A stretch of DNA of 64,000 nt from a virus: positions 32,001-96,000 of IMG/VR virus record IMGVR_UViG_3300037851_000102; one strand, written 5' to 3'. Positions 2 through 34,529 of this stretch are shown piece by piece. Every line of letters starts with the position of its first letter. Position 1 is the stretch's first letter. The position numbers and the translations under genes were made by a program. The notes beneath the pieces were generated by a model, which did not search any database, had not been told where the DNA came from, and worked only from the letters and a program-made list of their open reading frames with translations.

Positions 2-817
2 ACCTATCGAACAAACTTCGCACAAGGCGCGGCCACAACAGCGGCGACCAATTGGAATTTAAACATCGTTCGAGACAATTTCGCTCGAACAATTTCGACA
101 GATTATGGAATTAGCTATGGAGACGCAACGACGACCATTTCAGGTGATTCGATATCTGTGGGCACATGGGGGACAAGTGCAGGGACAACAAACGAATACA
201 GAATCTACGTTACAGCCACGGACGCTACCACGTTCACGATCTCAGGATCTTCAATCGTTAGTGGGGCAATCGATCTTGCCGATTCGATCAAAGAGATTAT
301 CAGATCGAATCTCCTCATTAAAACAGGAAGAAGCCGATCTCATCTTCCTACACAAGTTTCAGGACAAGAACTTAAAGCAAGAGATACTCTCAGAGATATG
401 CTTACTGAAGCAGAGTGGAGAAGATACGTTACGAATGGATTCATCATGGTCAAAGGAAGAGCAGGATTTACTTCTCCGAAGTTTGGCGTTGGGATCTCTC
501 AAAAGATGTCAGGAAGTTCTCTCTGGTATCAGATCTTCAATGATCGCAGAAGAGTCAAAGTCTTCCAAGACGGCAAAGAGTTCGCGCAAATCTGCATCCA
601 TACGGTAAACGAGTGCCCGCCTTCAGATCACGTTATCAACATGAAGGTTCTCGTTGAGCTTGATGAGGATATGATCTGGCAGGGCGGCAATCCTCACTTC
701 CAAAACGATCTGAGTGCGTCTCTCTCATCTGGCAGTCTTTCGTTTGATTCTGGAGAGGGTTCTCTTTCAGAGCGCGTGAAAAGATTGCGTGAGAATTTTG
801 GGTTGGCGATAGCATGA
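2..817 (+). CDS. hypothetical protein, 5' partial
   Basis: The frame of ORF 158..817 stays open back to position 2, so the gene starts upstream of the window. Its stop overlaps the next start (ATGA). Confidence 0.7.
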   Translation, partial: TYRTNFAQGAATTAATNWNLNIVRDNFARTISTDYGISYGDATTTISGDSISVGTWGTSAGTTNEYRIYVTATDATTFTISGSSIVSGAIDLADSIKEIIRSNLLIKTGRSRSHLPTQVSGQELKARDTLRDMLTEAEWRRYVTNGFIMVKGRAGFTSPKFGVGISQKMSGSSLWYQIFNDRRRVKVFQDGKEFAQICIHTVNECPPSDHVINMKVLVELDEDMIWQGGNPHFQNDLSASLSSGSLSFDSGEGSLSERVKRLRENFGLAIA

Positions 818-1155
818 TGTCAGATGAAATCCATTTGCCGCCAGAGGTTCTCAAAGATTTTGAGGACATGATTGGCAGGGTCACTGCCGACACATACGTT
901 GTCACCAAAATGGATCGTGTTAAATCCAGATTCCCAAAGGCTCTCGGCGAAATTAAAGAGGGCACGGTTCTTTATATGTTGGTCGAAGCCCTTGTGACCG
1001 AGATGGTGGAATCTGAGCGTGAATTTGTTAAAGAATTCGAGAAGTTCATAAAGCCATTGCCACAGAAGTTGGTTGATTCGATCTCGAAGCATCTCAAAGA
1101 AAAATCAGTTGAAGAGAAGGCAGAATTCGTCAAGGCGCTTGAAGCTCTCCGATAA
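814..1155 (+). CDS. hypothetical protein with C-terminal FxxALxxL tag
   Basis: 113 aa ORF, ATGA-coupled, ends EFVKALEALR*. Confidence 0.8.
   Translation: MMSDEIHLPPEVLKDFEDMIGRVTADTYVVTKMDRVKSRFPKALGEIKEGTVLYMLVEALVTEMVESEREFVKEFEKFIKPLPQKLVDSISKHLKEKSVEEKAEFVKALEALR
1130..1155 (+). promoter_or_regulatory. candidate sigma-28-type promoter for the amidase gene
   Basis: TCAAGGCG-N10-TCCGATAA, 30 nt upstream of the ATG; spacer is one base shorter than the TAAAGTTT-N11-GCCGATAA consensus. Confidence 0.45.
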
Positions 1156-1185
1156 GATAGGCTTGAAACCTATTAAGGAGAACAA

Positions 1186-2082
1186 ATGGACAAGCAGAAG
1201 TTATACACCCTGCGCTGGTATGCAATGCAAATTGCACGGGTCTCTCAAGATCCAAAGGTTGATGCCCTCGCATTAGATCAAATCGAAATTCTTTCTCAGC
1301 TTTTGGGCGAACCTGTGCCCGAAGAGTTCGCACCGCCTGAGCCAGATCGACCAAGCAAAGGCGAAGAGCCACAGGAGTCTTCATCAAAAAAGGTCTATCC
1401 AGTTGGTGAGAAAAAATTGTGGTATCCAGAGGCGGTTGTTCGCACAGATATCAAGCGCCAAGCGAAGGGCGAATATCCAAAGGGCTATCCTTATGGAGCC
1501 ATTGTCCACTTCACGGCTGGTCAGTATTCAAAAGGCGTTCAGAATGCGATTGATTCGATCAAGGATTCTCCATATTTCTTTTTGTGCCTTGGGACAGATG
1601 GGAAGATGGTTCAGGCCAATCCTTTGAATCAGTGGGGTTATCACGCTGGAGAGAGCGCGTGGGAGATCGCTGGAGCCAAGCGAAACGGCGTATCCAACTA
1701 TCTTGTTGGAATTGAGATCAACAATCCTGGAAGGCTGACAGAAAAAGACGGGAAGTATTTCACTTATTGGGACACGAAGTTCACCAAGCCAATCGATCCA
1801 AGCGAAGTTCGCGTGATTGAAAAGAACACGGACAACATTTTGGCTGGAGCTTATTTGCCATACACGAAGGCACAGGAAGATTCTCTGATCGAATTCTTGT
1901 TGTGGGCGAAGGCGAACAATCCAAGTGTTTTCAGTTTCGATTATGTTCTTGGTCACGATGAAGTGGCAGGCCCGAAAGGTATCGGTCGCTGGAGAAAGAA
2001 CGATCCAGGCGGCGCACTCAGCATGACGATGACGGAATTTAGGCAGCTTTTGAAAGATGAATACAAAAAAAGATACGGATAA
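1186..2082 (+). CDS. N-acetylmuramoyl-L-alanine amidase (Amidase_2 type), probable endolysin
   Basis: Motifs IVHFTAG, YHAG, GIEINNPG, LGHDEV, KNDPG; AAGGAG ribosome-binding site. Confidence 0.88.
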   Translation: MDKQKLYTLRWYAMQIARVSQDPKVDALALDQIEILSQLLGEPVPEEFAPPEPDRPSKGEEPQESSSKKVYPVGEKKLWYPEAVVRTDIKRQAKGEYPKGYPYGAIVHFTAGQYSKGVQNAIDSIKDSPYFFLCLGTDGKMVQANPLNQWGYHAGESAWEIAGAKRNGVSNYLVGIEINNPGRLTEKDGKYFTYWDTKFTKPIDPSEVRVIEKNTDNILAGAYLPYTKAQEDSLIEFLLWAKANNPSVFSFDYVLGHDEVAGPKGIGRWRKNDPGGALSMTMTEFRQLLKDEYKKRYG

Positions 2083-2744: not shown

Positions 2745-3005
2745 ATGTTTGGTTTTGCATGGAACACCAAGAAGGTGAAAACGATTGTCTCCTCTCCAGA
2801 GGGGCGAGTTCAAGTTGAAGTCACGGCTGGCGACGTTGTTCGTACTCCAAATCGGCATCAAATAGAAACAATCATCTCTTCACTCTGTACTTGTGTTTCA
2901 GAGCTTATGAGCATTCAAGAAGCGCAAGCAAAGAGGATCGCAGATCTTCAGGGGCAGCTTGCGAAAAAAGAAGAGGGGACAACGAATGAGGCAGTACAAA
3001 TTTAG
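2745..3005 (+). CDS. hypothetical protein
   Basis: 86 aa ORF in a tightly packed operon. Confidence 0.65.
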   Translation: MFGFAWNTKKVKTIVSSPEGRVQVEVTAGDVVRTPNRHQIETIISSLCTCVSELMSIQEAQAKRIADLQGQLAKKEEGTTNEAVQI

Positions 3006-3213: not shown

Positions 3214-3407
3214 AGGACTGCTCGAATTGCGGAGAAGAAATTCCAGAGAAGCGCGTGAAGGCAATGCCCAACACGGAGCTTTGTGTTTTCTGCCAAGAGA
3301 AACTTGAGAAGGCTGGCAAATTTCAAAGACACGTTATGGATGTTCAGCCAGTTATGAAGGCGGGAGAAGTCGATGAAATAAATTCGACAATAGTGAGGGC
3401 AAATTGA
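3210..3407 (+). CDS. DksA/TraR C4-type zinc finger protein
   Basis: CSNCGEEIPEKRVKAMPNTELCVFCQEKLE matches the family pattern. Confidence 0.85.
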   Translation: MKDCSNCGEEIPEKRVKAMPNTELCVFCQEKLEKAGKFQRHVMDVQPVMKAGEVDEINSTIVRAN

Positions 3408-6400
3408 AATTTACACATCTGCACAGTCACACAGAGGCATCCATCGCAGACGGCTTATTCGGCCCGAAGGCGTGGGTTGGCGCTCTCAAAGATAAAGGAT
3501 TCAAATCACACGCGATCACAGATCATGGAGTGATGACTTCTTTGCTTCCATTTTATTCTCTCATGAAGCAAGAGAAGATGATGCCAATTCTCGGCGTGGA
3601 ATTCTATTACAATGAAGATCCAACGAAGAAGGATAAAGACAACAGAAAGAATTCGCATCTGATTCTGCTTGCGAAAGATTATGATGGTTATCAAAATCTC
3701 TGCAAATTATCGAAGCTCTCTTTCACAGAGGGTTATTACTACAAAAACAGAATTGGACTTGAGTGGCTGAAGCAATACAAGGATGGACTCATCTGTTTAA
3801 CGGCTTGTATGGGCGGAGTTCTTTCGCAGGAAGTTTGGAAGGAGTCTCGCGGAGAAGATTCGGATCTTGAAGGAAGATTCGATCAGTTCTCAGAAATCTT
3901 TGGCGACGATTTTTACGTCGAATTCCAAGGCCACAATGTTATTTCAAGCCTTCCAAGCGGAGAGTTATTCAATTCGCAGGCGCTAATCAATCAGGAATTT
4001 TACGATAGGCTTCGTACACGCAAGGGCTTCAAGCAAGTTGTCACCAACGATTGCCATTATATTTTGCCCGAACACGCCATGATCCAAGCAACACTTAAAG
4101 ATATGTCTTGGAAGGGCGGAGCGAAAGATGGCGCTGGAGACTCTGCAACAGTATCAAAAGAATCGAAGTGTGATTCTCTTTGGCTCAAAAAGCCAATCGA
4201 TATTGCGAAATCATTCAAGGAGCATCACGAATATCTGCCAATGAAGTTCGTTGCGGATGGAATGCTTGCGACTCAAGAAATACTTGAGAAGTGTTCAAAG
4301 TTCGCGCTCCCAACAGGCAAGCGGTATCTTCCAACTTTTAAAAAAGACAAGCCATCGAAAGATCTTTTCAAATTGCTGGCAACAAAGAAGCTGAAATCAT
4401 TTTTAGATTCTGAAGATCTTCGCGCCACTCGAAAAGAGTACATCTCTCGCTTCAAAGAAGAGTACAGGGTTATATCCACTTATGGTCTTGAAGATTATTT
4501 CTTGATCGTGTGGGACATCGTTCGTTACGCGGAGACCAAGGGAATCTATGTGGGACTTGGCCGTGGCTCTGCGGCTGGATGCTTGATCTCGTATCTTCTT
4601 GGAATCGTAAAGATCGATCCACTTGAATATGGATTATTGTTCGAGCGTTTCTTGAATGAGAATCGATGCGTGTCTGGAGAGCTTCCAGATATTGACTTGG
4701 ACTTTGAATCTGATCGACGTGGCGAAATCAAAAAGTACATCTTTGAAAAGTACGGTTCAGATTACGTTTGCGAAATTGGAACTTATGGTCGCATGAAGCT
4801 CAAAACATCTTTGATCGACTTTGGTAAAGCACTTGGCGTGGCAACGCAGAAGGAGCTTCATGCGATCACCACAAATCTCGATCTCGACAAGGAAGATGTT
4901 GACGATCTCGATGCGGCCATTGAATCCGATCCAAGATTGAAGAAGCTGGTTGATTCCAGCGAAGAGTATGGATTTATTGTTCGCGAAATCATTGGACAGA
5001 TCAAATCTCAAGGAGTTCATCCTGCGGGACTTGTAATTTGCTCTGAGAAGATTGCAGACATTACGCCAGTAAAAACACAGAAGAAAACTTTAAAGACCGA
5101 AGAGCGTGTGGATGGTGAGCCGAAGGACAAGCGAATCATCACAACGCAATCAGAAGACAAGTACATTATCGCCAATGGCATGATGAAGATGGATATCTTG
5201 GGTCTTAAAGAATACGACGTTATCAAATATGTGATTGAGAACGCTGGCACTCCTTTCACATTTGAAAACTACAAACAAGAGATCCAAAAACAAGAAAGAA
5301 TTAAGCCAAACAAAAAGGTTTGGCAAATGTTCCAAAAAGGTAAAACAGAAGGCGTGTTTCAGTTCGCATCTGACGGCATGAAGGAGCTTCTCATTCAGAT
5401 GAGACCTGATTCAATCAATGATTTAATCGCGGCGAATGCTCTCTTCCGTCCTGGCTGTCTTGAGAACGGCTGGCACACGCAGTATTGCAGGAGAAAGCAT
5501 GGAGAAGAAGAAGTCGAATATGTTCACCCAGATGTTGAGGCAGCGTTGGGAGAAACTTATGGTGTCATTGTTTATCAAGAACAGTTCATGGCGGTCATTC
5601 ATAGATTGGGTGGAATCAGTCTCGTCGATTCGGATACGATACGTTCCGCACTCGGCAAGAAGGACAAGGCAAAGCTGGACAAGTTCAGAGAGCAATTCGT
5701 TAAAGGTGCCAGTGAAAGAATTGGTACAAGCGCAGCGGAAGGATTATGGTCACAGATCGAGAAGGCGGCAGGATATACGTTCAACAAATCGCACTCAGCG
5801 GCCTACTCAGTCCTCGCATACACATCACAGTATTTAAAGGTTCATTACCCTGCGCACTTTTGGGCAGCACAGCTTGATTGGGACATCCGCAAGGGCAAGA
5901 CCGACGATATGCTCGTCAACAGGCGGGCAGCTTCAGAAATGGGGATAGCTTTTGTCCTGCCCAACGTGAACCGATCCAAAACCAACTTCTACGTCGAAGA
6001 TAAGGATGTTGTTTGGCCGATCAGCGCGGTCAAAGGTTGTGGCCCGAAAGCGGCGGAAGAGATCGTTGCAAAACAGCCATTCACAAGTTTTGAGGACTTC
6101 CATAAGCGGATAAACAAGGCCAAGGTGAAAGTGAATGTTATTGAGGCTTTGATCTGCTCTGGAGCGATGGACGAGTTTGGCGACCGCAAAGACCTGCTTA
6201 AACAGCTATCAGATCACGGCAAGAAGCGTTTCAAACCATTAACAGACGACGACATCGTTCAGCGGTTCTTTGATTCAATGGGCTTCTTTGAGCGCAAAAT
6301 CAAGGACGTTCGAGAAACTTTCAGCGATGTTTGCATCACTGAAGCAGAATTGCGTGAATATGAGCCTGGAGAACACGTCAGGGTCGGCGGCATGATCGTG

Positions 6401-6616
6401 AACGTCAGAGCCACAAAAACCAAGCGCGGCGATGCGATGGGGTTTGCGACTCTTATGGATCTCGATGAAATGATCGATCTTACTTTCTTCCCTGAAACAT
6501 GGGCAGAAAACAGAGAATTGATACGAGATGGCTCAATCGTTGAGGTTGGCGGCAGAAAATCATCATGGGGGAACAAAGAAAATGCGATTGAAGTCGAAAA
6601 AATTCACTCATGCTGA
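3404..6616 (+). CDS. dnaE: DNA polymerase III alpha subunit (family C)
   Basis: PHP domain motifs HLHSHT and AITDHG; GRGSAAG; PDIDLDF; KMDILGL; FNKSHS; C-terminal OB fold; 1070 aa. Confidence 0.97.
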   Translation: MKFTHLHSHTEASIADGLFGPKAWVGALKDKGFKSHAITDHGVMTSLLPFYSLMKQEKMMPILGVEFYYNEDPTKKDKDNRKNSHLILLAKDYDGYQNLCKLSKLSFTEGYYYKNRIGLEWLKQYKDGLICLTACMGGVLSQEVWKESRGEDSDLEGRFDQFSEIFGDDFYVEFQGHNVISSLPSGELFNSQALINQEFYDRLRTRKGFKQVVTNDCHYILPEHAMIQATLKDMSWKGGAKDGAGDSATVSKESKCDSLWLKKPIDIAKSFKEHHEYLPMKFVADGMLATQEILEKCSKFALPTGKRYLPTFKKDKPSKDLFKLLATKKLKSFLDSEDLRATRKEYISRFKEEYRVISTYGLEDYFLIVWDIVRYAETKGIYVGLGRGSAAGCLISYLLGIVKIDPLEYGLLFERFLNENRCVSGELPDIDLDFESDRRGEIKKYIFEKYGSDYVCEIGTYGRMKLKTSLIDFGKALGVATQKELHAITTNLDLDKEDVDDLDAAIESDPRLKKLVDSSEEYGFIVREIIGQIKSQGVHPAGLVICSEKIADITPVKTQKKTLKTEERVDGEPKDKRIITTQSEDKYIIANGMMKMDILGLKEYDVIKYVIENAGTPFTFENYKQEIQKQERIKPNKKVWQMFQKGKTEGVFQFASDGMKELLIQMRPDSINDLIAANALFRPGCLENGWHTQYCRRKHGEEEVEYVHPDVEAALGETYGVIVYQEQFMAVIHRLGGISLVDSDTIRSALGKKDKAKLDKFREQFVKGASERIGTSAAEGLWSQIEKAAGYTFNKSHSAAYSVLAYTSQYLKVHYPAHFWAAQLDWDIRKGKTDDMLVNRRAASEMGIAFVLPNVNRSKTNFYVEDKDVVWPISAVKGCGPKAAEEIVAKQPFTSFEDFHKRINKAKVKVNVIEALICSGAMDEFGDRKDLLKQLSDHGKKRFKPLTDDDIVQRFFDSMGFFERKIKDVRETFSDVCITEAELREYEPGEHVRVGGMIVNVRATKTKRGDAMGFATLMDLDEMIDLTFFPETWAENRELIRDGSIVEVGGRKSSWGNKENAIEVEKIHSC
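5981..5999 (+). repeat. dispersed near-palindromic motif (parS-like)
   Basis: ACCAACTTCTACGTCGAAG, identical at 59637..59655. Confidence 0.6.
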
Positions 6617-6649: not shown

Positions 6650-7084
6650 ATGAGCAGAGATTTAGTTTACGAAGTGAAGGGGCTCCTTCCAGAAAGCGTT
6701 GTTGTCTCGATCCAGAAAGATCTTCGGATATCTGAAGACCTTGATACTGAAGTTGATCGGGCGGCATCACACTATGGCTTTTATGCCGTGCTATCTGAAA
6801 AGGCAGAGACTCGCTATCAAAAGATGAAGTTCGCGTTTGAGCAATGGAAGGCTGAGATTGAATCTCGGCAGATCATGTTGCGAGCGCGTGAAAACAAAAA
6901 GGCGTTCACAGAGGCTCAAATGCGAGCCCACGTTCAATCACAACCAAAGTATCGAGCATATCAGGTGAGACTTATTCAGTACGATGAGCATCGTCGTATT
7001 TTGAAGATCATTGCCCGTGCGTTCGAGCTTAAAAAAGACCTCGTACAAACAAAAGCCGCGAATCGGCGGAAGGAGACACGATGA
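6650..7084 (+). CDS. UvsY-like recombination mediator
   Basis: Helical protein of about 144 aa (FTEAQMRAHV, ARAFELKKD) located upstream of the SSB and RecA genes. Confidence 0.55.
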   Translation: MSRDLVYEVKGLLPESVVVSIQKDLRISEDLDTEVDRAASHYGFYAVLSEKAETRYQKMKFAFEQWKAEIESRQIMLRARENKKAFTEAQMRAHVQSQPKYRAYQVRLIQYDEHRRILKIIARAFELKKDLVQTKAANRRKETR

Positions 7085-7917
7085 GCAAAGAAGTGGAGAA
7101 GGTAAAAAAGAAAGCGGTGGATGATGCCCATTCGCTGATTGACGAAGCTCGAAAGTGCTTTGGCAATATGCAGAGATCATGGTGGGAGTTCGCAAAGTCG
7201 ATCCATCGAATCAGAAAGGAAGATGCGTGGAGCAAGGATTCTCTTGGCAAAGAGGACGGCTTCGATTCTTTCAAAGACTTCTGCTCGGCTGAATACCCTT
7301 CTGTTGACGTGAACACTATTTACAAATTCTGCGCGGTTGTTGATGAGTGGCACGATGTTTTGGAATCGAGAATCAAAAAAGATCCAGAGTTCAGACTTCC
7401 AGCGTATGAGGCTTGTTATCGCCTTGTGACTGCGAAAACAGAGGTTGCAAAGGAAGAGATCTCTCGACTTCGCAAGTCTTTGATGGATGCAAAAATTAGC
7501 TATCGTGGCCTGAAAGATCAGCTTCAGACGTTGATCGTAAAAACGAAGCGCGATTCTGCAAAGACAGTGGAAGAGGCGGAAGAAACCGTTCGCCAGCTTG
7601 AAGAGGATCTCGCAAAGGATTTGAGCGACGACGAAATGAACTTTGATGATTCGTTGTTCGATTCTGAAGTGGAAGAGGATGCTGACGCTGAAGAGCCAGA
7701 CTTCGATGATGAAGAGCTTGAAGAAGATGCGGACTCATCTGCGGCATCTTGCAAGGCAAGAGTTGAATACTTGCTTGAGAATCTTCCCATCGTTGAGCTT
7801 TCAATGAAGAAGGGCAAGATCCACAACGATATCGTTGAACTAATGACTTCGCTCGAAAAACTCGGCGACGTTGCAAACAATTTCATGAACAAATTTGAAG
7901 AAATTAACAAAAAATAA
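7081..7917 (+). CDS. hypothetical protein
   Basis: 278 aa ORF with an acidic linker. Confidence 0.8.
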   Translation: MSKEVEKVKKKAVDDAHSLIDEARKCFGNMQRSWWEFAKSIHRIRKEDAWSKDSLGKEDGFDSFKDFCSAEYPSVDVNTIYKFCAVVDEWHDVLESRIKKDPEFRLPAYEACYRLVTAKTEVAKEEISRLRKSLMDAKISYRGLKDQLQTLIVKTKRDSAKTVEEAEETVRQLEEDLAKDLSDDEMNFDDSLFDSEVEEDADAEEPDFDDEELEEDADSSAASCKARVEYLLENLPIVELSMKKGKIHNDIVELMTSLEKLGDVANNFMNKFEEINKK

Positions 7918-7926
7918 GGAGACACA

Positions 7927-8880
7927 ATGAGTAAGCTAATTGAAAAAATGAAAAAAGAGGCCGAGCGTTTAAAGAAGAAAGAAGCCGAGCGCGGTGAGTA
8001 CGGCCCAAAGGTTGAATGGTATCAACCACAGGTCGGCGAACACATGATTCGTATTCTGCCAAATTTAAAAAACGACGAAGAACTTCCTTACAAACAGGTT
8101 CGAGTTCACTTCATCAATGTGAAAAAGAAAGATGGATCTTTCGCTAAAATTCCAGTTCGTTGTCTTGAGGATTTTGAAGAACAGTGTCCTCTTTGTCAGG
8201 AACATGAGAAGTTGAGAAAGACTGACAATGAAGCCGCCAAAGATCTTCGCGCAACAGAGAGATACATTTATATGATTATCGATTACGCGACGAAGACAGT
8301 TAAGCCTTGGCAGGCTGGAATCAGAGTTCATACAAGTATCGTTGAGTTCTTTGGAGACCTGGCAGACACGGCATTAAAGCGTGATTGGAAGCTGACAAAG
8401 AAGCAAAATGGCAAATCTAAAATGGCGATTGATTACACGATCCGTCCATCAATGAAAGAGACAGACATTCCTGCAAAACTTGAGGCTCTCGTTGAAGAAG
8501 CGGTGGACATCGACACGCTTTTCGCAACAAACGAAAAGAAGAAGATGCTTGAGTTCTTGGGTGCGGATGTGGACGAAGATACTGACGTGGATCACGACGA
8601 AGAAGATGATCGCGCAGCAAAAGCTAAAGCGGCAGCGGCAAAGGCCAAGGCAGCAAAAGCTAAAGCGGCAGCGGTTGAAGAAGACGAAGACGATGATCGT
8701 TCAGGTGGATTTGAAGACGAAGAAGATCACTTCCCTGAAGACAAGCCAGCAAAAAAGGCGGCAGCAAAGCCAGCGGCGAAGCCAGTAAAAAAGAAAGTCG
8801 AAGAAGAAGATGAAGATCTTGATATCGACGCTGAGGACGAAGATCTCGAAGAAGAGCTTCGATCACTTGGAGTTGAATGA
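7927..8880 (+). CDS. gp32-like single-stranded DNA-binding protein
   Basis: IRILP, C...CPLC zinc site, long acidic and Lys/Ala-rich tail; recombination gene context. Confidence 0.75.
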   Translation: MSKLIEKMKKEAERLKKKEAERGEYGPKVEWYQPQVGEHMIRILPNLKNDEELPYKQVRVHFINVKKKDGSFAKIPVRCLEDFEEQCPLCQEHEKLRKTDNEAAKDLRATERYIYMIIDYATKTVKPWQAGIRVHTSIVEFFGDLADTALKRDWKLTKKQNGKSKMAIDYTIRPSMKETDIPAKLEALVEEAVDIDTLFATNEKKKMLEFLGADVDEDTDVDHDEEDDRAAKAKAAAAKAKAAKAKAAAVEEDEDDDRSGGFEDEEDHFPEDKPAKKAAAKPAAKPVKKKVEEEDEDLDIDAEDEDLEEELRSLGVE

Positions 8881-12019: not shown

Positions 12020-13767
12020 AGCTCAGAAATTTTATGTCGTATCAGTCACAGGACTTTGATGATCTCTCAGATCCAGAGTTGACACTGATCGAAGGGCCGA
12101 ATGGTTCAGGCAAGTCTTCCATTTGGGATGGAATATCGTGGATACTATTTGGACAGACAGTTCGCGGAGTCAAGAACGACGACGTGATAAATAGAAAGTT
12201 CAAAAAGGATTGCGAAGTTGAATTATCAATACAGCTCAGAGGCGATGAACTCAGAATCAAGCGTTACCGCAAGCATTCTCGTTTTGGTGATCGTCTTTTC
12301 TTTACATATCGTGGAGCTACAACAGAACTCGGCACACTCGCGGATACTCAAAAATCGCTTCTTGAGCTTCTACAAATCGATTTTGAATTATTCCGTTGTT
12401 CAATTTTGTTTGCTCAAGGAGAGACTTTCAATTTTGTCAACGCTGGTAACAAGGCTCAAAAAGAAATTCTATCGAAAGTGATGAGAGTTGATTACTCGAA
12501 TGGTCTCGATGAAGCCAAGAGAATAATCAAGAAGTTCGACAACGAAGCCGCAGAGAATGAGCGCAAGCTCGCAGTATTGAATTCGCACCTTGAAGCGCAA
12601 GTCGATTGGGAATCTGAAATCAAAGAGTTTGAAGATGCGAGACAGGCAGCCATTGATTCGATACAAGAAGACATCGACGCAATCACTTCTGAAATAAAAA
12701 CTGCAAGCGCAAAATTGAAATCATCGACTGAAGACTCAGACTCACAGATGAAGGACTTGAACTTCGCCAAAGAAAAGCTCGAAAAATCCGCAGAGTCCAT
12801 CAAGAACAAATACTTCCAGATACGCTCAAAGGTTGAGGCGCTGAAAGACCAAAACAAAGAGCTTAAAGATCTTTCAGGTGAATGCCCTACTTGTTATCAA
12901 GATATCGACGAAGAGCAGAAGGCCGACATGATTGCGGCCAACGACAAAGAGATCCAGAAGTTGAGCGACGAATTGAAAAGCGTCACCGAATTAGAAAAGA
13001 TCGCGCTCGAAAAAAGAAAAGAGAACTCAGAAAAGATCGAAGCTCTGCGCAACAGATTGGCGGCCAACAAAGCCGTGGTTGAAAAGATCCGTGGACTGAA
13101 TGCTCGCAAGAAAGACTACGAAGCTCGGCTGAAAGAGAAGCAGGATGAAGAGAATCCCGCACTCGCTCGCAAAGAGAAAGATGAAGAGCGCAAGAAGGAG
13201 ATCGCGGCCAAGATCAAGCAGATCGAGAAGAAGCAGATCGAGATCCAGAATCTTCAGCCTTACTACGATTTTTGGGTCAACGCATTTGGTGATTCAGGCA
13301 TCAAGTCTTTCATCTTTGATTTGATATGTTCCAGCCTTACAAATAAGTCGAACAAATATCTCAACATTCTTACAGATGGGGCGATCACAATCTCGTTCGA
13401 CACACAGAAGAAGCTGAAGACTGGAGAGCTTCGAGAGAAGTTTGATTGCGAGATACTAAAGGACGGGGAGCGCGTCGAATACGAATCATATTCAGGCGGA
13501 GAGAAGCGCAGGATATCGCTCGCAGTGGACATGGCATTGAGTGAGATCATGTCAGAGTATTACGGCCAGAAGTTTAGCATGGTCGTGTTCGATGAGCAGA
13601 CAGGTTACATGGACGAAGGCGGAAGAGTTGGATTCATGAATTTGCTGCGTGAAATCGCCAGAGAGAAGCGCGTGTTCGTGGTGGATCATGATGCTGAGTT
13701 CAAGGCGATGTTTGATATGGTTTGGACAGTTCAAAAGAAATCAGGAATTTCAAGGGTTATAGCATGA
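12001..13767 (+). CDS. sbcC: SbcC/Rad50/gp46-like SMC ATPase
   Basis: GPNGSGKS, coiled coils with a CPTC zinc hook, YSGGE signature, VVFDE Walker B. Confidence 0.95.
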   Translation: MDFKSLKLRNFMSYQSQDFDDLSDPELTLIEGPNGSGKSSIWDGISWILFGQTVRGVKNDDVINRKFKKDCEVELSIQLRGDELRIKRYRKHSRFGDRLFFTYRGATTELGTLADTQKSLLELLQIDFELFRCSILFAQGETFNFVNAGNKAQKEILSKVMRVDYSNGLDEAKRIIKKFDNEAAENERKLAVLNSHLEAQVDWESEIKEFEDARQAAIDSIQEDIDAITSEIKTASAKLKSSTEDSDSQMKDLNFAKEKLEKSAESIKNKYFQIRSKVEALKDQNKELKDLSGECPTCYQDIDEEQKADMIAANDKEIQKLSDELKSVTELEKIALEKRKENSEKIEALRNRLAANKAVVEKIRGLNARKKDYEARLKEKQDEENPALARKEKDEERKKEIAAKIKQIEKKQIEIQNLQPYYDFWVNAFGDSGIKSFIFDLICSSLTNKSNKYLNILTDGAITISFDTQKKLKTGELREKFDCEILKDGERVEYESYSGGEKRRISLAVDMALSEIMSEYYGQKFSMVVFDEQTGYMDEGGRVGFMNLLREIAREKRVFVVDHDAEFKAMFDMVWTVQKKSGISRVIA

Positions 13768-14003
13768 GTTTAAGAGGGACATACATTGAAAAGTGTAAAC
13801 ACATTTTAAATTGGGCAGATGAGCATCCAGAGTTCGACGAAGGATTTATTAAGAGCGTTCTTTCGCAGATGGAGCATGGCAATCGTGAGCCCACAGATAA
13901 ACAGGCAAACGCAATCGACAACATTATTGGGCGATTCAAGATTGATCTTCCAGATCCAGAGATGGATGCGCGAAGATTTGAAATGGATTTGGAAGAGTTA
14001 TGA
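13764..14003 (+). CDS. hypothetical protein with variant C-terminal tag
   Basis: ATGA-coupled start; ends RRFEMDLEEL*. Confidence 0.7.
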   Translation: MSLRGTYIEKCKHILNWADEHPEFDEGFIKSVLSQMEHGNREPTDKQANAIDNIIGRFKIDLPDPEMDARRFEMDLEEL

Positions 14004-15111: not shown

Positions 15112-15338
15112 AAGAGCAAATTCAGGCGATTGCAGAAGCAGTGGCGGCCTCAGAGGGCACACTCGATGTGAAATCAACGATCACAATGATGCTTGATGTG
15201 ATGGCGCTTCAAGCATCAAAGATTGAGGATCTTGAAAAAGGCCAACAAAGGATGCGAGAAGCGTTCTCAACAATCTCAAGTGGCGGCAAGATTCCAACAC
15301 AAATGGGTGGTAGCAATGGCGGCTTCAGCATCGGGTAG
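15108..15338 (+). CDS. hypothetical protein
   Basis: AAGGAG ribosome-binding site; ATGA-coupled. Confidence 0.7.
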   Translation: MKEQIQAIAEAVAASEGTLDVKSTITMMLDVMALQASKIEDLEKGQQRMREAFSTISSGGKIPTQMGGSNGGFSIG

Positions 15339-15711
15339 GTTCGTTAGAAACGAAGAGTCCAAGAGAGTTTTCAAGAAGTGGATGAACCTAATCGACAATG
15401 GGGAGAAATACTACTTTGCCAAAGCTGCGGATCTCTTCAGTGATCTTCCAGCGCGTCATCAATCAGCATTCATAAAATACTTTGCTGATAAGGTGAACGT
15501 GAAGTTTTGGCTGGACAATTGGCACGATAGTACGCAGTATCGTGATGTATTACGTTCGATTCTGTTTTATTATTCTGGTCGCGAAAAAGCGAAAGATCCG
15601 AATAAGAAAGAGTTCAGAAATGAGCTTATGGAATTCATGAGGAGTGATGAGTTCAAATCTGGCGTAAAACATGAGGCAAAAGAATTTAAAGAAGGATTGG
15701 AAAGCTTATGA
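15316..15711 (+). CDS. hypothetical protein with C-terminal tag
   Basis: Ends KEFKEGLESL*; start position uncertain. Confidence 0.7.
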   Translation: MAASASGRFVRNEESKRVFKKWMNLIDNGEKYYFAKAADLFSDLPARHQSAFIKYFADKVNVKFWLDNWHDSTQYRDVLRSILFYYSGREKAKDPNKKEFRNELMEFMRSDEFKSGVKHEAKEFKEGLESL

Positions 15712-18230: not shown

Positions 18231-18490
18231 GTGAGAATGAAACTGAAACAATAAAATTTCTGCGCGAGAAACTGGCTGAAGCGCAGGTTCAAAACGACAA
18301 ACTTCAAGCGGCACTTGAATCGGCGAAATCTGATATTAAAAACGCTACAAATCTAATTATCGACTTCATTGCGGAGTATTCCACGCCGAACAATTCACTG
18401 AAGACAGAGGACGCATTGGGCGGTCTCAAGAACTTCATAAGAGAGCGGTGTGATAGTGGATCCGAAAAACAAGCTGCGCCAAACGCTTGA
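18227..18490 (+). CDS. hypothetical coiled-coil protein (no tag)
   Basis: 87 aa, ATGA-coupled. Confidence 0.7.
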   Translation: MSENETETIKFLREKLAEAQVQNDKLQAALESAKSDIKNATNLIIDFIAEYSTPNNSLKTEDALGGLKNFIRERCDSGSEKQAAPNA

Positions 18491-18725
18491 ACACGCGATA
18501 GAGCAAATCAACAGAGATCCGCATCTGGTTCGTTCACACACAGTTGATGCACTTGCAGAGCAAGTTGGGCTCAAACGACGACAAGGGGAGCCTGACAATG
18601 TTCTTTGGGCTCGAATTGAGGGCTCAGGTCGGCTTGATGATTTACGCAAAGAGCTTATGGATAAAATGAATTCGCTTGGCAATGATGAGGTACGAGACTT
18701 TGAATCAGCACTGAAAAACTTGTGA
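18450..18725 (+). CDS. hypothetical protein with C-terminal tag and baseplate-like motif
   Basis: VDALAEQVGLKRRQGEPDNVLWARI; ends RDFESALKNL*. Confidence 0.75.
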   Translation: MIVDPKNKLRQTLEHAIEQINRDPHLVRSHTVDALAEQVGLKRRQGEPDNVLWARIEGSGRLDDLRKELMDKMNSLGNDEVRDFESALKNL

Positions 18726-18731
18726 GGATGT

Positions 18732-19049
18732 ATGAAGCTGAGGGCGAGAAGCAAATTAGAGGATTCAAAAGAGGTTGAACTTTCAATGGAATCACTCGGC
18801 AAATTGTTGGCGGATGGTCTGAATGGAGTCTTCGAGAAGATCCACACAGATGATTGGAAGAAGTTTTCGTTGAAACTTGAATTCTATGCCAAAACAGATA
18901 GCAACGGCGTGTCAATTGCAAATCTTACATTATCTGAAACGACAAGTGGAGAGAAACCCGCTAACATTAAAAAAGCAGGGAAGCGGGTTGAGGGCTCCAC
19001 GGACGGGGCCGCTATTGTTGATTTTCTTGAGGGCTTGAAAAAGCTATGA
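18732..19049 (+). CDS. hypothetical protein with C-terminal tag
   Basis: Ends VDFLEGLKKL*. Confidence 0.75.
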   Translation: MKLRARSKLEDSKEVELSMESLGKLLADGLNGVFEKIHTDDWKKFSLKLEFYAKTDSNGVSIANLTLSETTSGEKPANIKKAGKRVEGSTDGAAIVDFLEGLKKL

Positions 19050-19450
19050 GTGAATCGGTGAAGCGGCCTTTGTTGATGGTTAAGCCCGAACTCGTTGCAA
19101 TGATCGACGATTGGGAGCGCATACGCGGCTCGAAGAGCGATGTAGAGCGCAGAAGACGGGAGCAAGAAGAGATTGCGAAGCTGCCCGTTTTAGATAGGCT
19201 CAAGCGCGAAATTTCAATTGGTGACAGAATAAAATTCGTCACAGCACAGAAGAACCGCAAAGCCGCGCTCGACAAGGAGTATGAGGTCTTATCAAAGCGG
19301 CGATACTGCACGAATCATGATGGTGGAGAGGTTGCGATCCTTTGTGATGATGGGAAGATTCGCGGATACTCGACCAGAAAAGTTGAAGTTATCAATCCAC
19401 AAAAACTCAGCGAAATAGAGCAGTTTTCAAACGCATTGGAGCTTTTATGA
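19046..19450 (+). CDS. hypothetical protein, possible SH3-like domain, with C-terminal tag
   Basis: ISIGDRIKF...KEYEV...ILCDDG; ends EQFSNALELL*. Confidence 0.75.
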   Translation: MSESVKRPLLMVKPELVAMIDDWERIRGSKSDVERRRREQEEIAKLPVLDRLKREISIGDRIKFVTAQKNRKAALDKEYEVLSKRRYCTNHDGGEVAILCDDGKIRGYSTRKVEVINPQKLSEIEQFSNALELL

Positions 19451-19794
19451 GCGAAACCATGCGGATGTTCACGCTTTATGTGGTGGAGAAGGAGACTGGA
19501 GAGCGGATTGCGATCCGTCCAGGTCTCATTTTTGAAGAAGAGCCAACAGCGGGAATCGCAAATCGTTTCACGATCAAGGCACTGAACACAGAGAAGCGCG
19601 AAGTGATTATTGAAGCACACGCATTCAAATCAGAGGTCACAGAATCGTGGGACAAGTTCGTTAAAATGGTCGCAGATGGCGAGTTAAAGCTCGTTAATTC
19701 AGAGAATGTGATCCGCGAGATGCGAGAGGCAAGAGAGCAGGGCAAGAGCGAGCAATCGGCCAAGGATTTTGAGGATGCGCTTAAAAATTTATAG
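19447..19794 (+). CDS. hypothetical protein with C-terminal tag
   Basis: Ends KDFEDALKNL*. Confidence 0.75.
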   Translation: MSETMRMFTLYVVEKETGERIAIRPGLIFEEEPTAGIANRFTIKALNTEKREVIIEAHAFKSEVTESWDKFVKMVADGELKLVNSENVIREMREAREQGKSEQSAKDFEDALKNL

Positions 19795-19803
19795 GGGACA
19801 GCG

Positions 19804-20280
19804 ATGTTTGATGAGTACAAGACAAGAGTGATGGGCAAGTTTGAAGAGCCAGAGATATCACACAGAGATATTGACAGGCTTGCAGAGTATTTCATACGTC
19901 GATCATTAAGATACTACGCAGGCGGTGGAGCCAGACACGTTGGCGGTGCGAGAATGCCAATGGAGTTCTACCGAGATCTTGCAAAGCAGGTGATTGAGCT
20001 TGCCTATAAATTTCACGGCGACAAATCGCATTCACTCAAGTCACTCGTTGCAATCATAATCGGGCCCGAAATCGAAAAGATCTTTTCACCCGATCCAAGA
20101 GAGGCGCGTCCACCTCAAGCAATCCTTGATGAGACCGATGAGAAGTTTTGGAAGATGATGGAAGAGCCAATGCTCACGAAAAAAGACATAGAATCCTTTA
20201 CAGAGAATGATTTTAAGCCAAAGAAGCCAAGGCCAAAGACAGAGATAGAAGAGTTCAACAAGGCACTTAAAAAGCTATGA
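19804..20280 (+). CDS. hypothetical protein with C-terminal tag
   Basis: Ends EEFNKALKKL*. Confidence 0.75.
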   Translation: MFDEYKTRVMGKFEEPEISHRDIDRLAEYFIRRSLRYYAGGGARHVGGARMPMEFYRDLAKQVIELAYKFHGDKSHSLKSLVAIIIGPEIEKIFSPDPREARPPQAILDETDEKFWKMMEEPMLTKKDIESFTENDFKPKKPRPKTEIEEFNKALKKL

Positions 20281-20579
20281 GCAAGCTCCCAAAGACCCGA
20301 TCAATTTACGATGTCGATAGGCTCACTTCAAGCTCAGAGATAAAGCTCGACGGCAGGACAATCGGCACAATCACAGATATCAGAATCGAAGACGGCACAG
20401 CCCACGTCGAAGCGACAATCACACCGCCAAAGCCCATTGAATCAATCACCTTTGAAGGCACAATCACAGGCTTTGAATCCATTGAAGAGATCCCAAAACC
20501 GAAATCCAAACGCCTCAGACACACACCAAAAGAGAAATCAGAAATTGAAGCATTTGAAGAGGCACTCAAAAACCTATGA
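20277..20579 (+). CDS. hypothetical protein with C-terminal tag and sheath-C-terminus-like segment
   Basis: TAHVEATITPPKPIESITF; ends EAFEEALKNL*. Confidence 0.75.
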   Translation: MSKLPKTRSIYDVDRLTSSSEIKLDGRTIGTITDIRIEDGTAHVEATITPPKPIESITFEGTITGFESIEEIPKPKSKRLRHTPKEKSEIEAFEEALKNL

Positions 20580-20902
20580 AGCCAGAAGGAATCACAATCA
20601 CACAGTATATGCTTCCCGAAGGCCCAATACACTTTGATACGGCCTCAGCCGAACAGCTCGATAGAATCGGAGAGCTACACGCAATCAGAAGAGACGACGG
20701 AGAGCCAGACGCAAGTTACAGATCCAAGCTATTAAAGGCACTTCATTCAAGAACGTCATACATGACCACAGATGAAGTGAAACAGTTCTTCGATCCCGAC
20801 ACAGGCAAAGAGTTCGTACAGATAGACCCAAACGAAATTCAAGCCAAAATCCAACACACGCAACAAGTCCAAGACTTTTTGACGGCGCTCGACAAGCTCT
20901 AA
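20576..20902 (+). CDS. hypothetical protein with C-terminal tag and baseplate-like motif
   Basis: TASAEQLDRIGELHAIRRDDGEPDASYRSKL; ends QDFLTALDKL*. Confidence 0.75.
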   Translation: MKPEGITITQYMLPEGPIHFDTASAEQLDRIGELHAIRRDDGEPDASYRSKLLKALHSRTSYMTTDEVKQFFDPDTGKEFVQIDPNEIQAKIQHTQQVQDFLTALDKL

Positions 20903-21872: not shown

Positions 21873-22112
21873 ATGTCACACATGATGGGTCAACAGAAGG
21901 CTCGGATGAGGGAAGAGAACAGGAATTGGCAGGAGAGAGATCGGGAGAACTTGAGCGGGAGAGCTTTGCGTAGGGAGCAGGAGCGCAAGGTCGCTGCATG
22001 GAATAGAGAGCAGGCGCGACTACGATCCGAAGAAGAGATTAGAGAACGGGCGCGGGAGCGAGAGCGATTGGTTTCGATTGAACGGTTCCAAGACGCGCTG
22101 GAGAACTTATGA
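21873..22112 (+). CDS. Arg/Glu-rich protein with C-terminal tag
   Basis: Ends ERFQDALENL*. Confidence 0.7.
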   Translation: MSHMMGQQKARMREENRNWQERDRENLSGRALRREQERKVAAWNREQARLRSEEEIRERARERERLVSIERFQDALENL

Positions 22113-24728: not shown

Positions 24729-25055
24729 ATGGGGCATTTACCAACATTAGAGAGTGACGCAAGCGGGAGAGTGAGAATCACATGGCCTGATGGACGCAGG
24801 TCAGAGGGACATATCACCAAAATGAATGTTCAGATGGGGAGAGGTTCGCTTGGTGAGCATACTCAAACGCTGGACTTCACTTTGACGTGCTTTGAGCCCA
24901 TGCTATCCGAAGAAGCCAGCACAATGAAGGCGGCAGCGGATGAAGCGAACAAAAGAGTCAGAGAAAATAAAGCCAAAAAAGAAGGCGTTAAAAAGATGGA
25001 AGAAGACCGTCTCAAGCCAGTCAGAGACTTCATCAAAGGCCTCGAACAGTTTTAG
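24729..25055 (+). CDS. hypothetical protein with C-terminal tag and tail-tube-like segment
   Basis: VRITWPDGRRSEGHITKM...LDFTLT; ends RDFIKGLEQF*. Confidence 0.7.
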   Translation: MGHLPTLESDASGRVRITWPDGRRSEGHITKMNVQMGRGSLGEHTQTLDFTLTCFEPMLSEEASTMKAAADEANKRVRENKAKKEGVKKMEEDRLKPVRDFIKGLEQF

Positions 25056-25494: not shown

Positions 25495-25767
25495 ATGGCT
25501 CGATCCAAGAAAAAAGAATTACGCGCAGAAAGTTCTCAAGACCTGGCGACACCTGGGCCCGAAATCGCGAACGTGGATTTTTCTAAACCGTGGACTTTGG
25601 ATCGCCAAGCCTATGACAAAGTGGCGTTTGCCGAGCTGGTCATGAAGCTCAAAACTTCTACGTCGAAGCTGGAATATCATCCAGACGGGAAGGTGACATT
25701 CCATTGGAAGGGAATGGCTAAATCCGCAGAATCACAGAGCTTTTCAAAAGCATTGGAGAATTTATGA
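25495..25767 (+). CDS. hypothetical protein with C-terminal tag
   Basis: GAGGAG ribosome-binding site; ends QSFSKALENL*. Confidence 0.75.
   Translation: MARSKKKELRAESSQDLATPGPEIANVDFSKPWTLDRQAYDKVAFAELVMKLKTSTSKLEYHPDGKVTFHWKGMAKSAESQSFSKALENL
25653..25668 (+). repeat. dispersed motif copy (parS-like)
   Basis: AACTTCTACGTCGAAG. Confidence 0.55.
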
Positions 25768-26831: not shown

Positions 26832-26840
26832 GGGGGGCAA

Positions 26841-32721: not shown

Positions 32722-32746
32722 TCCGAAGAGGGCGGCAGGAGACACT

Positions 32747-34393
32747 ATGCCGCTTTTCACAGGTGATGCGTACAAGCTGATTCGTAAAATTCCAGATGGC
32801 AAAATTCATTGCGTGGTCACAAGTCCGCCTTATTGGGGCTTGAGAAACTACGGCAACGATGCACAGATAGGGCTTGAGCCGAGTCCCGAATTATTCGTTC
32901 GCAAGTTTGTTTTACTCTTTAGGGAGATCAGAAGGACTTTGCGAAAGGATGGAACGATTTGGCTTAATATGGGTGATTCGTACTACGGATCGGGCAAAGG
33001 ATATGGTCACAATTGGGAGAACTCCCCAAAGCAGAAGACCAATGAGGGCTCGCTATTCTCTCAAGACATGAGGCCGCCTTCGCTCAATAAGCATCCATAT
33101 TTAAAATCAAAAGATCTGATTGGCATTCCTTGGAGAATCGCATTCGCGCTTCAGGAAGACGGCTGGTATTTGAGATCTGACATCGTGTGGGCGAAGACAA
33201 ACTCAATGCCCGAATCAGTCCTTGATCGACCTACGCGCTCGCATGAATACGTTTTTCTTCTTTCAAAGAGTCCCGATTATTATTTCAACCACAAGGCCAT
33301 TCAAGAGGATTGTGTTTCAAACGAGAGAGACAAGGCTCGAATGAAAAACCCTGAAGAGCGACCGAAGGACAAAAAATATCAAAGCATTGTGGATCCAAAG
33401 CTCGCAGGCACAGGCTCGAAGATCGGCAAGTTTAATTCCGTTGGCAATGGAGAGAAGCGAAACAAGAGAGACGTGTGGTCTCTTGCGACTTCGCAATTCA
33501 AGGGCTCCGCAGAAATCGTTGAATATCGGGCCGTTCGCCGCGATGAAGCCCAAGATGACACGCTATACATAGCGTCACCAAGTTGTTTAATCTATGGGGG
33601 TCTTTTTGACCTTCTTGCCACGGCTCTATGTGATGAACGTGAAGTTGACGATGTGATCCACAGGCTTGACATTGGTTCTCGTCTCTCTCAAGAGCCAAGG
33701 AGCGGTTTCGTTCATATTGACCAGCTCCGCGCTTGGAGCTTTGGTGGACGAAGTTTGGATTTGATTCTTTCTGAATGTTCTGCTTTTGCCAAGTTCCGTA
33801 ACAATGGAAGCCGCAAAACGGGCCTCTTTGTTTCGACCAGTCTTTCATGTAAGCCTTTCTCTGAAAGACTCTCTTGCATTGGGCGCATTTTAGAGAAACA
33901 CGGCTTGTCTGAGCGGAAGCTGAACAATCTCTTGAACAATACTTTGGAATCCGATTTTTACGAAGATCAGATGAAAGAAATTCTTTCGAGCAATTTTGGC
34001 AAACATATTTCAGTAAAGACATCGGGCGTGTTTTACAAAAAAACAATTAGAAACGCAAACCACTTCGCGACGATGCCTGAGAAGCTCGTAGAGCCGTGTA
34101 TTCTTGCAGGATGTCCGAGAGGGGGAATAGTGCTTGATCCGTTCGCTGGAGCGGCCACGGTTGGCGTAGTGGCTGAGAGGCTTGGTCGCAAGTTCATCGG
34201 CTTCGAGTTGAATCCAGAGTACGCGAAGATCGCGGAGAAGAGGCTTCAAGATGAGCGAGAAAAAGGGTTATTGGGAGCTAAGAAGAGACCTCGAGAAGAG
34301 GCTGTTCAAACATCTGGACGAGAAGCTGCCGTTGGAATTGAAGATGCAGTTGAAGGGATCGCAAATCAAAGAGATTTTGATGCTCATCTCTGA
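32747..34393 (+). CDS. N4-cytosine/N6-adenine DNA methyltransferase (beta class) with an in-frame insertion of about 183 aa
   Basis: VTSPPYW catalytic motif, W.K.N.MPESV.DR, HFATMPE, VLDPFAG SAM-binding motif. Confidence 0.9.
   Translation: MPLFTGDAYKLIRKIPDGKIHCVVTSPPYWGLRNYGNDAQIGLEPSPELFVRKFVLLFREIRRTLRKDGTIWLNMGDSYYGSGKGYGHNWENSPKQKTNEGSLFSQDMRPPSLNKHPYLKSKDLIGIPWRIAFALQEDGWYLRSDIVWAKTNSMPESVLDRPTRSHEYVFLLSKSPDYYFNHKAIQEDCVSNERDKARMKNPEERPKDKKYQSIVDPKLAGTGSKIGKFNSVGNGEKRNKRDVWSLATSQFKGSAEIVEYRAVRRDEAQDDTLYIASPSCLIYGGLFDLLATALCDEREVDDVIHRLDIGSRLSQEPRSGFVHIDQLRAWSFGGRSLDLILSECSAFAKFRNNGSRKTGLFVSTSLSCKPFSERLSCIGRILEKHGLSERKLNNLLNNTLESDFYEDQMKEILSSNFGKHISVKTSGVFYKKTIRNANHFATMPEKLVEPCILAGCPRGGIVLDPFAGAATVGVVAERLGRKFIGFELNPEYAKIAEKRLQDEREKGLLGAKKRPREEAVQTSGREAAVGIEDAVEGIANQRDFDAHL
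33498..34022 (-). CDS. HNH endonuclease with N-terminal zinc fingers, nested antisense in the methyltransferase gene
   Basis: ERDENQCQACG...LHVHHI...NLVTLCIACHLGLH; CxxC...CSxxC repeats. Confidence 0.88.
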   Translation of the reverse strand: MSLLKYVCQNCSKEFLSSDLRKNRIPKYCSRDCSASAQTSRVSLKCAQCKRVFQRKAYMKDWSKQRGPFCGFHCYGTWQKQNIQKESNPNFVHQSSKRGAGQYERNRSLALERDENQCQACGSHRQLHVHHIEPWQEGQKDPHRLNNLVTLCIACHLGLHRGERPDIQRFLRSP

Positions 34394-34529
34394 GTATGTT
34401 TATCAGGATACTAAACTAAAAGAGAAGGTGTCAGCGGCTCAAGATAAAAACTGGTCGAAGATCAGCGCCGTGCTGGACTCAAGCACAGAAGAACAGGACG
34501 AATTTCTCGCCGCGTTAAACAAATTGTAA
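34251..34529 (+). CDS. hypothetical protein with C-terminal tag
   Basis: Ends [10 protein letters not shown]; overlaps the methyltransferase tail. Confidence 0.7.

Follow-up and report, generated by a model that had tools for sequence, protein, structure and literature searches.

Why do so many small proteins of one phage, otherwise unrelated to each other, end in the same few residues? The question is raised by a stretch of viral DNA of 64,000 nucleotides (the window), which corresponds to bases 32001-96000 of the 110,388-bp IMG/VR virus record IMGVR_UViG_3300037851_000102; we label this genome G000 and give window positions unless they are marked as genome positions. A prediction made from the letters of the window alone had listed fifteen proteins ending in F-x-x-[AG]-L-x-x-L-COOH and proposed that this C-terminal tag docks all of them onto one common partner, the reader. 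Our preferred account, which we hold tentatively and at a little less than an even chance, is that the tag is a docking element with a single partner, and that this partner is the component of the replication or recombination machinery that reads the tail of the phage single-stranded DNA-binding protein (SSB).

A C-terminal motif on unrelated proteins

All fifteen C-termini were found at the stop codons listed for them (Table 1), and, as described, the tag is on eight of nine genes that follow one another in 17919..20902, all but 18227..18490. A long open reading frame (ORF) that begins at 17631 and runs to 18230 is out of frame with the ParB-like gene, which it overlaps; the tagged gene at this place probably starts at the ATG at 17919, as had been assumed. 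Translated in six frames, the whole genome contains 29 copies of the strict motif F..[AG]L..[LF]; 16 of these directly precede a stop codon (15 of them in credible genes) and one more is separated from the stop by a single Arg. Based on 2 internal matches in 33,447 sequence windows of a rough automatic gene set, 0.009 matches are expected at its 151 C-termini; there are 11, though the set misses some tagged genes (Poisson P ~1e-30). The enrichment also holds against a shuffled control: with the last 20 residues of every protein shuffled, a genome has 0.0055 matches on average and never more than 1.

Another five tagged genes are found beyond the window, among them those encoding a WGR-domain protein and a DUF6744 protein, bringing the total to about 20. 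Comparison of these proteins reveals that the motif is longer than first stated: position -12 is Glu in 11 of the 20, position -11 is Ile, Val, or Ala in 13, and position -9 is Asp or Glu in 12. The consensus in G000 is E-[IVA]-x-[DE]-F-x-x-[AG]-L-[EK]-x-L-COOH, about 12 residues, with the hydrophobic positions (-11, -8, -4/-5, and -1) on one face of a helix and the last three residues typically K/E-x-L. The 22 residues preceding the tag include many polar, charged, and Pro residues. The carriers are mostly ORFans of 60-290 residues with isoelectric points from 4.9 to 10.5, and their genes sit in early or replication regions on both strands. We found no description of the motif, of DUF6744, or of shared phage C-terminal motifs in the searchable literature.

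Nine of the fifteen tagged ends in the window overlap the next start codon as ATGA, many tagged genes stand in a tandem array, and GAGG or AAGG occurs within some tag codons, roughly 10-14 nt ahead of the next start. These features would suit a by-product of DNA function at gene junctions, such as a ribosome-binding site, a coupling signal, or a recombination joint, or else the functionless inheritance of one duplicated 3' segment. The other six tags, however, have no overlapping downstream gene, and the codons differ between copies, as had been claimed: there is synonymous variation at all conserved positions, including TTT and TTC for Phe, GCA, GCG, and GCT for Ala, and CTG, TTG, CTT, CTC, and TTA for Leu. 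The upstream bodies are indeed unrelated: once the last 12 residues are cut off, no pair of tagged proteins reaches a BLASTP E-value better than 0.12. Pfam recognizes only the WGR domain and DUF6744 among the 20 tagged proteins, and nothing above threshold in 27 further tagged proteins from four related genomes (G003, G005, G006, and G008). Given this combination of synonymous codons at conserved positions and unrelated bodies, we conclude that the constraint acts on the protein; together with the six tags that do not overlap a gene, it means that neither a ribosome-binding site, a coupling signal, a recombination joint, nor simple paralogy explains the motif. The tag is also kept in orthologues of 35-45% identity and on both strands, its versions in related genomes are defined at the amino-acid level, and no DNA repeat was found by eye in the aligned ends. 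An origin at the DNA level is largely refuted already, and we assign it almost no likelihood.

How might the tag be presented to a partner? The AlphaFold2 model of the DUF6744 carrier, built on a 40-sequence alignment, has a predicted local distance difference test score (pLDDT) of 92. In this model the tag forms a separate helix, residues 279-288, which follows a long coiled helix after a break of 5 residues and has a lower confidence of about 68. A separate terminal helix of lower confidence behind a linker fits an exposed docking element. The fold of the carrier has no PDB match detectable by sequence profile or Foldseek. We propose a short linear motif, some 12 residues in length and acting at the protein level: a small amphipathic helix held on a flexible polar linker at the extreme C-terminus, through which about 20 unrelated accessory proteins would dock on a single partner.

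Genome-specific versions of the tag

Orthologues of the tagged proteins at 35-78% identity retain the tag. The only close homologue of the carrier ending FNKALKKL is 78% identical to it and ends FTKALKSL; the F, A, L, and L are kept and the x positions are changed. A full HMMER search with the DUF6744 carrier yielded 372 cluster representatives, of which the roughly 40 closest (33-61% identity) almost all end in [DE]-F-x-x-x-L-x-x-[LI]-COOH; distant members do not. No protein match for this carrier was found in GenBank phages, and scans of IMG/VR with single proteins found no close relatives. Metagenome loci share a syntenic order of primase, a 200-residue protein, the tagged WGR protein, ligase, and the tagged DUF6744 protein.

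To compare whole genomes, we took relatives from IMG/VR via the polymerase, CobT-like, and SSB genes. Each of several relatives has a tag of its own. There are at least seven ends of the type F-x-x-x-L-[RK]-x-[IL] in G001 (a 50-kb fragment), at least nine of the type F-M-x-[ED]-L-x-x-I in G003 (108 kb, complete), seven or eight of the type D-[FIM]-[ILM]-x-E-L-x-x-[LI] in G005 (115 kb), and at least twelve of the type F-x-x-x-[LI]-K-D-L in G008, with at least four in G006 (GC content 60%). In their own genomes these patterns sit next to stop codons: FM.[ED]L..I in five of five cases in G003 and [FIM][ILM].EL..[LI] in seven of seven in G005. The G000 version is stop-adjacent in 16 of 26 cases in G000 in this comparison of versions, compared to 0-2 in each of four relatives. 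Indeed, each version is almost confined to its own genome, with 0-2 occurrences elsewhere, and orthologues take the version of the genome in which they sit. The WGR protein and the carrier ending FKEGLESL keep a tag in G001, G003, and G005, and orthologues of the latter end in FKSELEAI in G003 and VTEALENL in G005. In G004 (104 kb, complete, with the same core genes) we found tag remnants only; there, the same orthologue reads FKEELEEV and then continues for 12 more residues. Uniformity within a genome together with drift between genomes is the pattern expected of a common reader that co-evolves with its ligands.

An 86-residue orphan, whose gene lies between those for dNK and DnaE, occurs in each of the five tag-rich genomes (G000, G001, G003, G005, and G008) but not in the tag-poor G004 and G010. 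This co-occurrence, in a small sample of genomes, makes it a candidate reader or cofactor, as a lead only. Pfam and an atlas look-up found no informative relatives of it.

The same comparison bears on the suggestion that the tag is a peptide for loading cargo into the capsid, binding the procapsid interior or the scaffold in the manner of encapsulin targeting peptides or the T4 capsid-targeting sequence, so that its carriers would be packaged and injected. The capsid is of HK97 type, with a major capsid protein about 40% identical to its counterparts in SPO1-like Bacillus phages, and the carriers are small and diverse, like injected internal proteins. A scaffold-like protein encoded upstream of the capsid gene even ends in P-E-L-V-G-K-L-K-Q-V-L-N, with tag-like spacing, and this end is conserved in G003 and G004. 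Yet the identity of the major capsid protein is 83% for G003 and 79% for G004, and that of the scaffold-like protein is 65% for each, while the tag of G003 differs from that of G000 and G004 has almost none. Conservation of capsid and scaffold across genomes with differing or absent tags argues against a capsid reader. So do the position of tagged genes in replication and early operons on both strands and the tag-like ends, described below, of SSB and proteins of the replication module. We regard cargo loading as very improbable.

The core of the original prediction is supported: the synonymous codons, the unrelated bodies, the tags kept in orthologues, the versions peculiar to each genome, and the terminal helix predicted behind a linker all favour an amphipathic C-terminal helix, selected at the protein level, that would dock unrelated proteins on one partner. 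The three roles that it offered (adaptor for an AAA+ protease or chaperone, capsid cargo peptide, or shared degron or localization tag) are no more than candidates, and it had missed the pattern in the SSB tail, the full length of about 12 residues, and the occurrence of lineage-specific versions throughout the clade. That the tag docks its carriers on one reader is, in our judgement, probable.

The SSB tail and candidate partners

What might this reader be? The gp32-like SSB of the phage ends in a tail with the same hydrophobic spacing as the tag (i, i+4, i+7) and a similar acidic context. A conserved tail, D-L-[ED]-x-E-L-[RKQ]-x-[LM]-G-V, is found in 17 of 24 homologue clusters, with six variant and one lacking it; the tails of relatives read D-L-E-Q-E-L-R-K-L-G-V in G003, E-L-N-A-E-L-K-A-L-G-I-E in G005, and E-F-E-K-E-L-R-E-L-G-M in G008. 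The SSB of the tag-poor G004 ends in D-D-D-D-D-L-D-F. In G001, a frameshift in a long acidic GA-rich repeat (contig position ~48300-49050) is needed to reach the tail DLEKEFEEMGI; it may be an assembly error or a real slippery tract of low complexity.

The gp32 protein of phage T4 ends in D-L-D-D-L-L-N-D-L, again with the i, i+4, i+7 spacing of the tag, though we found no excess of gp32-like ends in the T4 genome. The C-terminal domain of gp32 is a known contact for several replication proteins. A C-terminal helix of gp32 docks on the Dda helicase mainly through hydrophobic contacts (PMC11551737).

Many tagged genes of G000 lie in replication and recombination modules, adjoining the ligase, primase, SbcC, RecU, and SSB genes, and several tagged ORFans are interleaved with those for primase, helicase, SbcC, and RecU. 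A helical protein of 278 residues encoded beside SSB also has a tag-like end, and its orthologues end in NFLDHLDEI followed by GKED and in LFTKLEEI. This protein was considered as a sliding clamp, but its model is all-helical and not clamp-like; the model itself, from AlphaFold2 on a single sequence, is poor (pLDDT 46). As a loader like T4 gp59 it was rejected because support was lacking, with an hhalign probability of 0.45% and no relative found in the PDB. Separately, a conserved protein of 223 residues encoded beside the WGR gene ends in DDDLDAILGE, and in relatives in DDLDDILKTI, DDLKEILGEM, or DSDLESILKS; its acidic, tag-like tail is conserved even in the tag-poor G004. We also considered the FxxA of the tag as a RecA-binding motif of the RAD51/BRC type and dropped this reading because relatives have Glu, Asp, or Leu at that position.

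From the shared spacing and acidic context, the docking of gp32, and the occurrence of tag-like ends and tagged genes in the replication region, we infer that the tag may use the receptor of the SSB tail. The most likely partner would then be whatever reads D-L-E-x-E-L-R-x-L-G-V, a component of the replication or recombination machinery, and the tagged proteins would be recruited to the site used by the SSB tail or would compete for it. Taken by itself, the identification of the reader with the SSB-tail reader is possible but doubtful.

Several observations weigh against it. In SSB the motif precedes G-V-x and so is not at a free end, and it is far more conserved across genomes than the tags are, which would be odd if both filled one pocket. 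No tag is present on the polymerase, helicase, primase, ligase, or RecA, a difference from sliding-clamp clients, and WGR is the only recognizable DNA-metabolism domain among the tagged proteins. G004 has the full replication module yet tag remnants only; this means that its machinery does not require a universal replisome reader. Finally, the resemblance of the two tails, read from sequence, is that of a generic amphipathic pattern (i, i+4, i+7) with acidic residues nearby.

A broader proposal is that a clade of freshwater phages of about 100-118 kb runs a network of such short linear motifs: 10-20% of the genes would be fast-evolving ORFans bearing a helix like that of the SSB tail, all addressed to one receptor in replication or recombination, with tag and receptor co-evolving into private versions. 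We think this somewhat unlikely as a whole.

The tagged proteins could instead be clients or adaptors of a machine related to cobaltochelatase, composed of a MoxR-class AAA+ ATPase (CobS-like) and a vWA protein (CobT-like) with its MIDAS (the adhesion site that depends on a metal ion) and its HExxH metallopeptidase motif both intact. They would dock on the CobT-like subunit as CobN does, and be remodelled or cleaved or bring targets. The phage proteins are true CobS and CobT homologues (E-values of 3e-42 and 6e-21 to solved chains); the DxSxS MIDAS sequence is invariant among 64 CobT-like homologues and HExxH is present in 54 of them. The HExxH residues here are H61, E62, and H65, where cellular CobT-related proteins of Paraburkholderia have LLVAR or AQVAR. 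Because the phage lacks a cobN gene, the pair probably acts on proteins, as judged from gene content. Four tagged genes, including those of the DUF6744 and WGR carriers, share the leftward region with the cobS- and cobT-like genes, and this region is syntenic in relatives. In the CobSTN complex, the last two helices of CobN adjoin the MIDAS site of CobT (preprint 10.64898/2026.07.21.739949), and MIDAS sites take an acidic ligand (PMC13036017), which the conserved Asp or Glu just before the Phe of the tag might supply.

The distribution of the motor across genomes does not follow that of the tag, however. G004 has cobS- and cobT-like genes and tag remnants only, the tag-rich G003 lacks DUF6744, and 70 further IMG/VR loci with a CobT-like gene have no such ends in their 10-kb flanks; in addition, the tag-like ends extend to SSB and other proteins of the replication module. 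In GenBank phages, the CobT-like protein has only two distant (~35%) partial matches. Prediction of a complex between the CobT-like protein (64-row alignment) and the 35 C-terminal residues of the DUF6744 carrier (40-row alignment), with Mg and Zn, gave no support (score 0.01, mark 0.32), and we do not count it as evidence either way. On balance, a role for this motor is unlikely.

Equally unlikely, in our estimate, is a shared degron by which an AAA+ protease of host or phage would remove a class of early proteins on schedule. Degrons of the ssrA type and other C-terminal degrons have a free carboxylate and hydrophobic last residues. The tag shares these properties and its C-terminal position, its carriers are small accessory proteins of early regions, and its genome-specific versions could follow different hosts, given GC contents of 43 to 60%. 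But the L-A-A-type end of an ssrA-like ClpX degron is missing from the tag, and the conserved spacing (i, i+3/4, i+7) along some 12 residues, with Phe strictly eight from the end, is more what one would expect of a helix bound in a groove than of a degron lying extended in a pore. Tag-like ends also occur on conserved proteins that are needed throughout infection, namely SSB, the WGR protein, and the 278-residue protein. Among the readings weighed here, docking at the site of the SSB tail is the one we favour.

Table 1. Tagged genes and other features (window positions, or genome positions where marked)
Feature	Position	Strand	Remark
Tagged gene, ends FVKALEAL, then R	814..1155	+	No Pfam match
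Tagged gene, ends FEMDLEEL	13764..14003	+	Variant, D at position 4; start uncertain (13722 or 13764)
Tagged gene, ends FKEGLESL	15223..15711	+	
Tagged gene, ends FEDALKAL	17919..18230	+	First of array
Tagged gene, ends FESALKNL	18450..18725	+	
Tagged gene, ends FLEGLKKL	18732..19049	+	
Tagged gene, ends FSNALELL	19046..19450	+	
Tagged gene, ends FEDALKNL	19447..19794	+	
Tagged gene, ends FNKALKKL	19804..20280	+	
Tagged gene, ends FEEALKNL	20277..20579	+	
Tagged gene, ends FLTALDKL	20576..20902	+	No overlap with downstream gene
Tagged gene, ends FQDALENL	21873..22112	+	
Tagged gene, ends FIKGLEQF	24729..25055	+	
Tagged gene, ends FSKALENL	25495..25767	+	
Tagged gene, ends FLAALNKL	34251..34529	+	Start uncertain; overlaps end of methyltransferase gene
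Tagged gene outside window, ends FLKALKKL	genome 18321-18767	-	
Tagged gene outside window, ends FATALKNL	genome 27591-28193	+	
Variant outside window, ends FMKSLESL	genome 15326-16195	-	
Variant outside window, ends LKEALEKL	genome 15144-15329	-	
Variant outside window, ends FSEALKAI, then GE	genome 20312-20860	-	
278-residue helical protein	7081..7917	+	Beside SSB gene; tag-like end NFMNKFEEI, then NKK
gp32-like SSB	7927..8880	+	Pfam gp32; tail DLEEELRSL, then GVE
86-residue orphan	2745..3005	+	Between dNK and DnaE genes
CobT-like vWA protein	genome 10388-12184	-	
DnaE-type Pol III alpha	3404..6616		PHP, finger, HhH, and OB domains
Scaffold-like protein	49011-49808		Upstream of capsid gene
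Five genes without family match	25764-30039		179, 174, 504, 327, and 234 residues
223-residue protein	genome 18769-19440	-	Beside WGR gene
Histone-deacetylase-family protein	genome 13710-14759	-	Early leftward region
Protein with BamE-like domain	genome 16369-16842	-	Early leftward region

Gene content and comparison with known systems

A freshwater metagenome, the only run to contain the sequence in full, may be where it came from. Nearly all genes of the window are on the plus strand. In addition to the DnaE-type polymerase, Pfam and PHROGs identify RecA, SbcD, SbcC, RecU, a ParB-like protein, two sigma factors, terminase, portal, and a methyltransferase. The minus strand upstream of the window encodes a DnaB-like helicase, primase, a UvsW-like helicase, an ATP-dependent ligase, the histone-deacetylase-like protein, and the CobS-like and CobT-like pair. 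Neither a sliding clamp nor a clamp loader was detected among the proteins scanned by Pfam and PHROGs. No nucleotide match to this DNA, including the tag array, was found in GenBank phages. The BamE-like domain in the leftward region hints at a host with an outer membrane. The five genes without a family match, which directly follow the tagged gene that stops at 25767, are shared with only G003 and G008 and are not found in G004 or G005.

Most small early phage genes have no known function, and a selected tag would group about 20 of them per genome; the tag peptide could be used as bait to find its reader. Should the SSB-tail partner prove to be the reader, these phages would be expanding the client list of a replication hub with rapidly changing accessory proteins, while tag and receptor drift together. 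If the network in the whole clade is real, phages would have their own version of PIP-box or SOCS-box logic, and dozens of genes without known function could be assigned to one pathway. Terminal address peptides of this kind could also serve as small modular docking tags.

How does the tag compare to known docking peptides? The AAA+ ATPase Vps4 has a MIT domain to which ESCRT-III proteins bind by their MIM1 helices. Like the tag, MIM1, (D/E)xxLxxRLxxL(K/R), is an amphipathic helix at the C-terminus with equal spacing, behind a flexible linker, and is carried by several proteins read by one domain. The tag differs in lacking the conserved Arg and the terminal Lys or Arg, and its carriers are unrelated whereas ESCRT-III proteins are paralogues; Pfam scans of about 50 phage proteins reported no MIT domain. 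With cobaltochelatase the phage shares true homologues of CobS and CobT, though not CobN; in the enzyme, the client has its last helices at the MIDAS face of CobT. The link between tag and CobT, however, is the neighbourhood of a few genes only, and tagless relatives have the cobS- and cobT-like genes as well.

Other parallels come from replication. The acidic C-terminal tails of T7 gp2.5 (an SSB) and gp4 (the helicase-primase) dock on the gp5 polymerase, so that one partner is common to an SSB and a second replication protein, whose shared type of tail includes an aromatic residue that is essential. In T7, however, only two proteins do so compared to about twenty here, and their tail is unstructured, an acidic stretch that closes with Phe, rather than a helix with Phe eight from the end. 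The tags also differ from the D-D-D-I-P-F end of bacterial SSB, ending instead in Leu, Ile, or Phe after a helix. The bacterial end is an acidic run closed by Pro-Phe or Phe, and only the SSB of G004 ends in this way. In T4, the C-terminal tails of gp43, gp33, and gp55 bind the gp45 clamp. Like these tails, the PIP-box (PMC6881253) and the bacterial clamp motif QL[SD]LF place a short, often C-terminal motif on unrelated proteins and bring them to a hydrophobic pocket on one hub. The tag matches neither QL[SD]LF nor the PIP-box Qxx[LIM]xx[FY][FY]: it has no conserved Gln and its spacing is different, and the polymerase and ligase are untagged, in a genome where no clamp gene was found among the scanned proteins.

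The T4 gp32 tail has an acidic, flexible region with an amphipathic helix that binds partners through hydrophobic contacts, and the phage SSB is a member of the gp32 family with such a tail. The tag has the acidic context and the i, i+4, i+7 helix of a gp32-type tail without sitting on an SSB: Pfam finds no SSB domain in the 20 tagged proteins, and only the SSB itself matches gp32. The arrangement is also reversed, as one gp32 tail is read by many partners and here many unrelated proteins carry the tail. Furthermore, the Dda-binding helix of gp32 comprises residues 248-270 and is not the extreme tip (PMC11551737). The principle of docking by a terminal peptide is thus known from T7 acidic tails, T4 clamp-binding tails, PIP-boxes, and SSB tails; what is new here is its scale (about 15-20% of the genes), its spread onto ORFans, and the private version in each genome.

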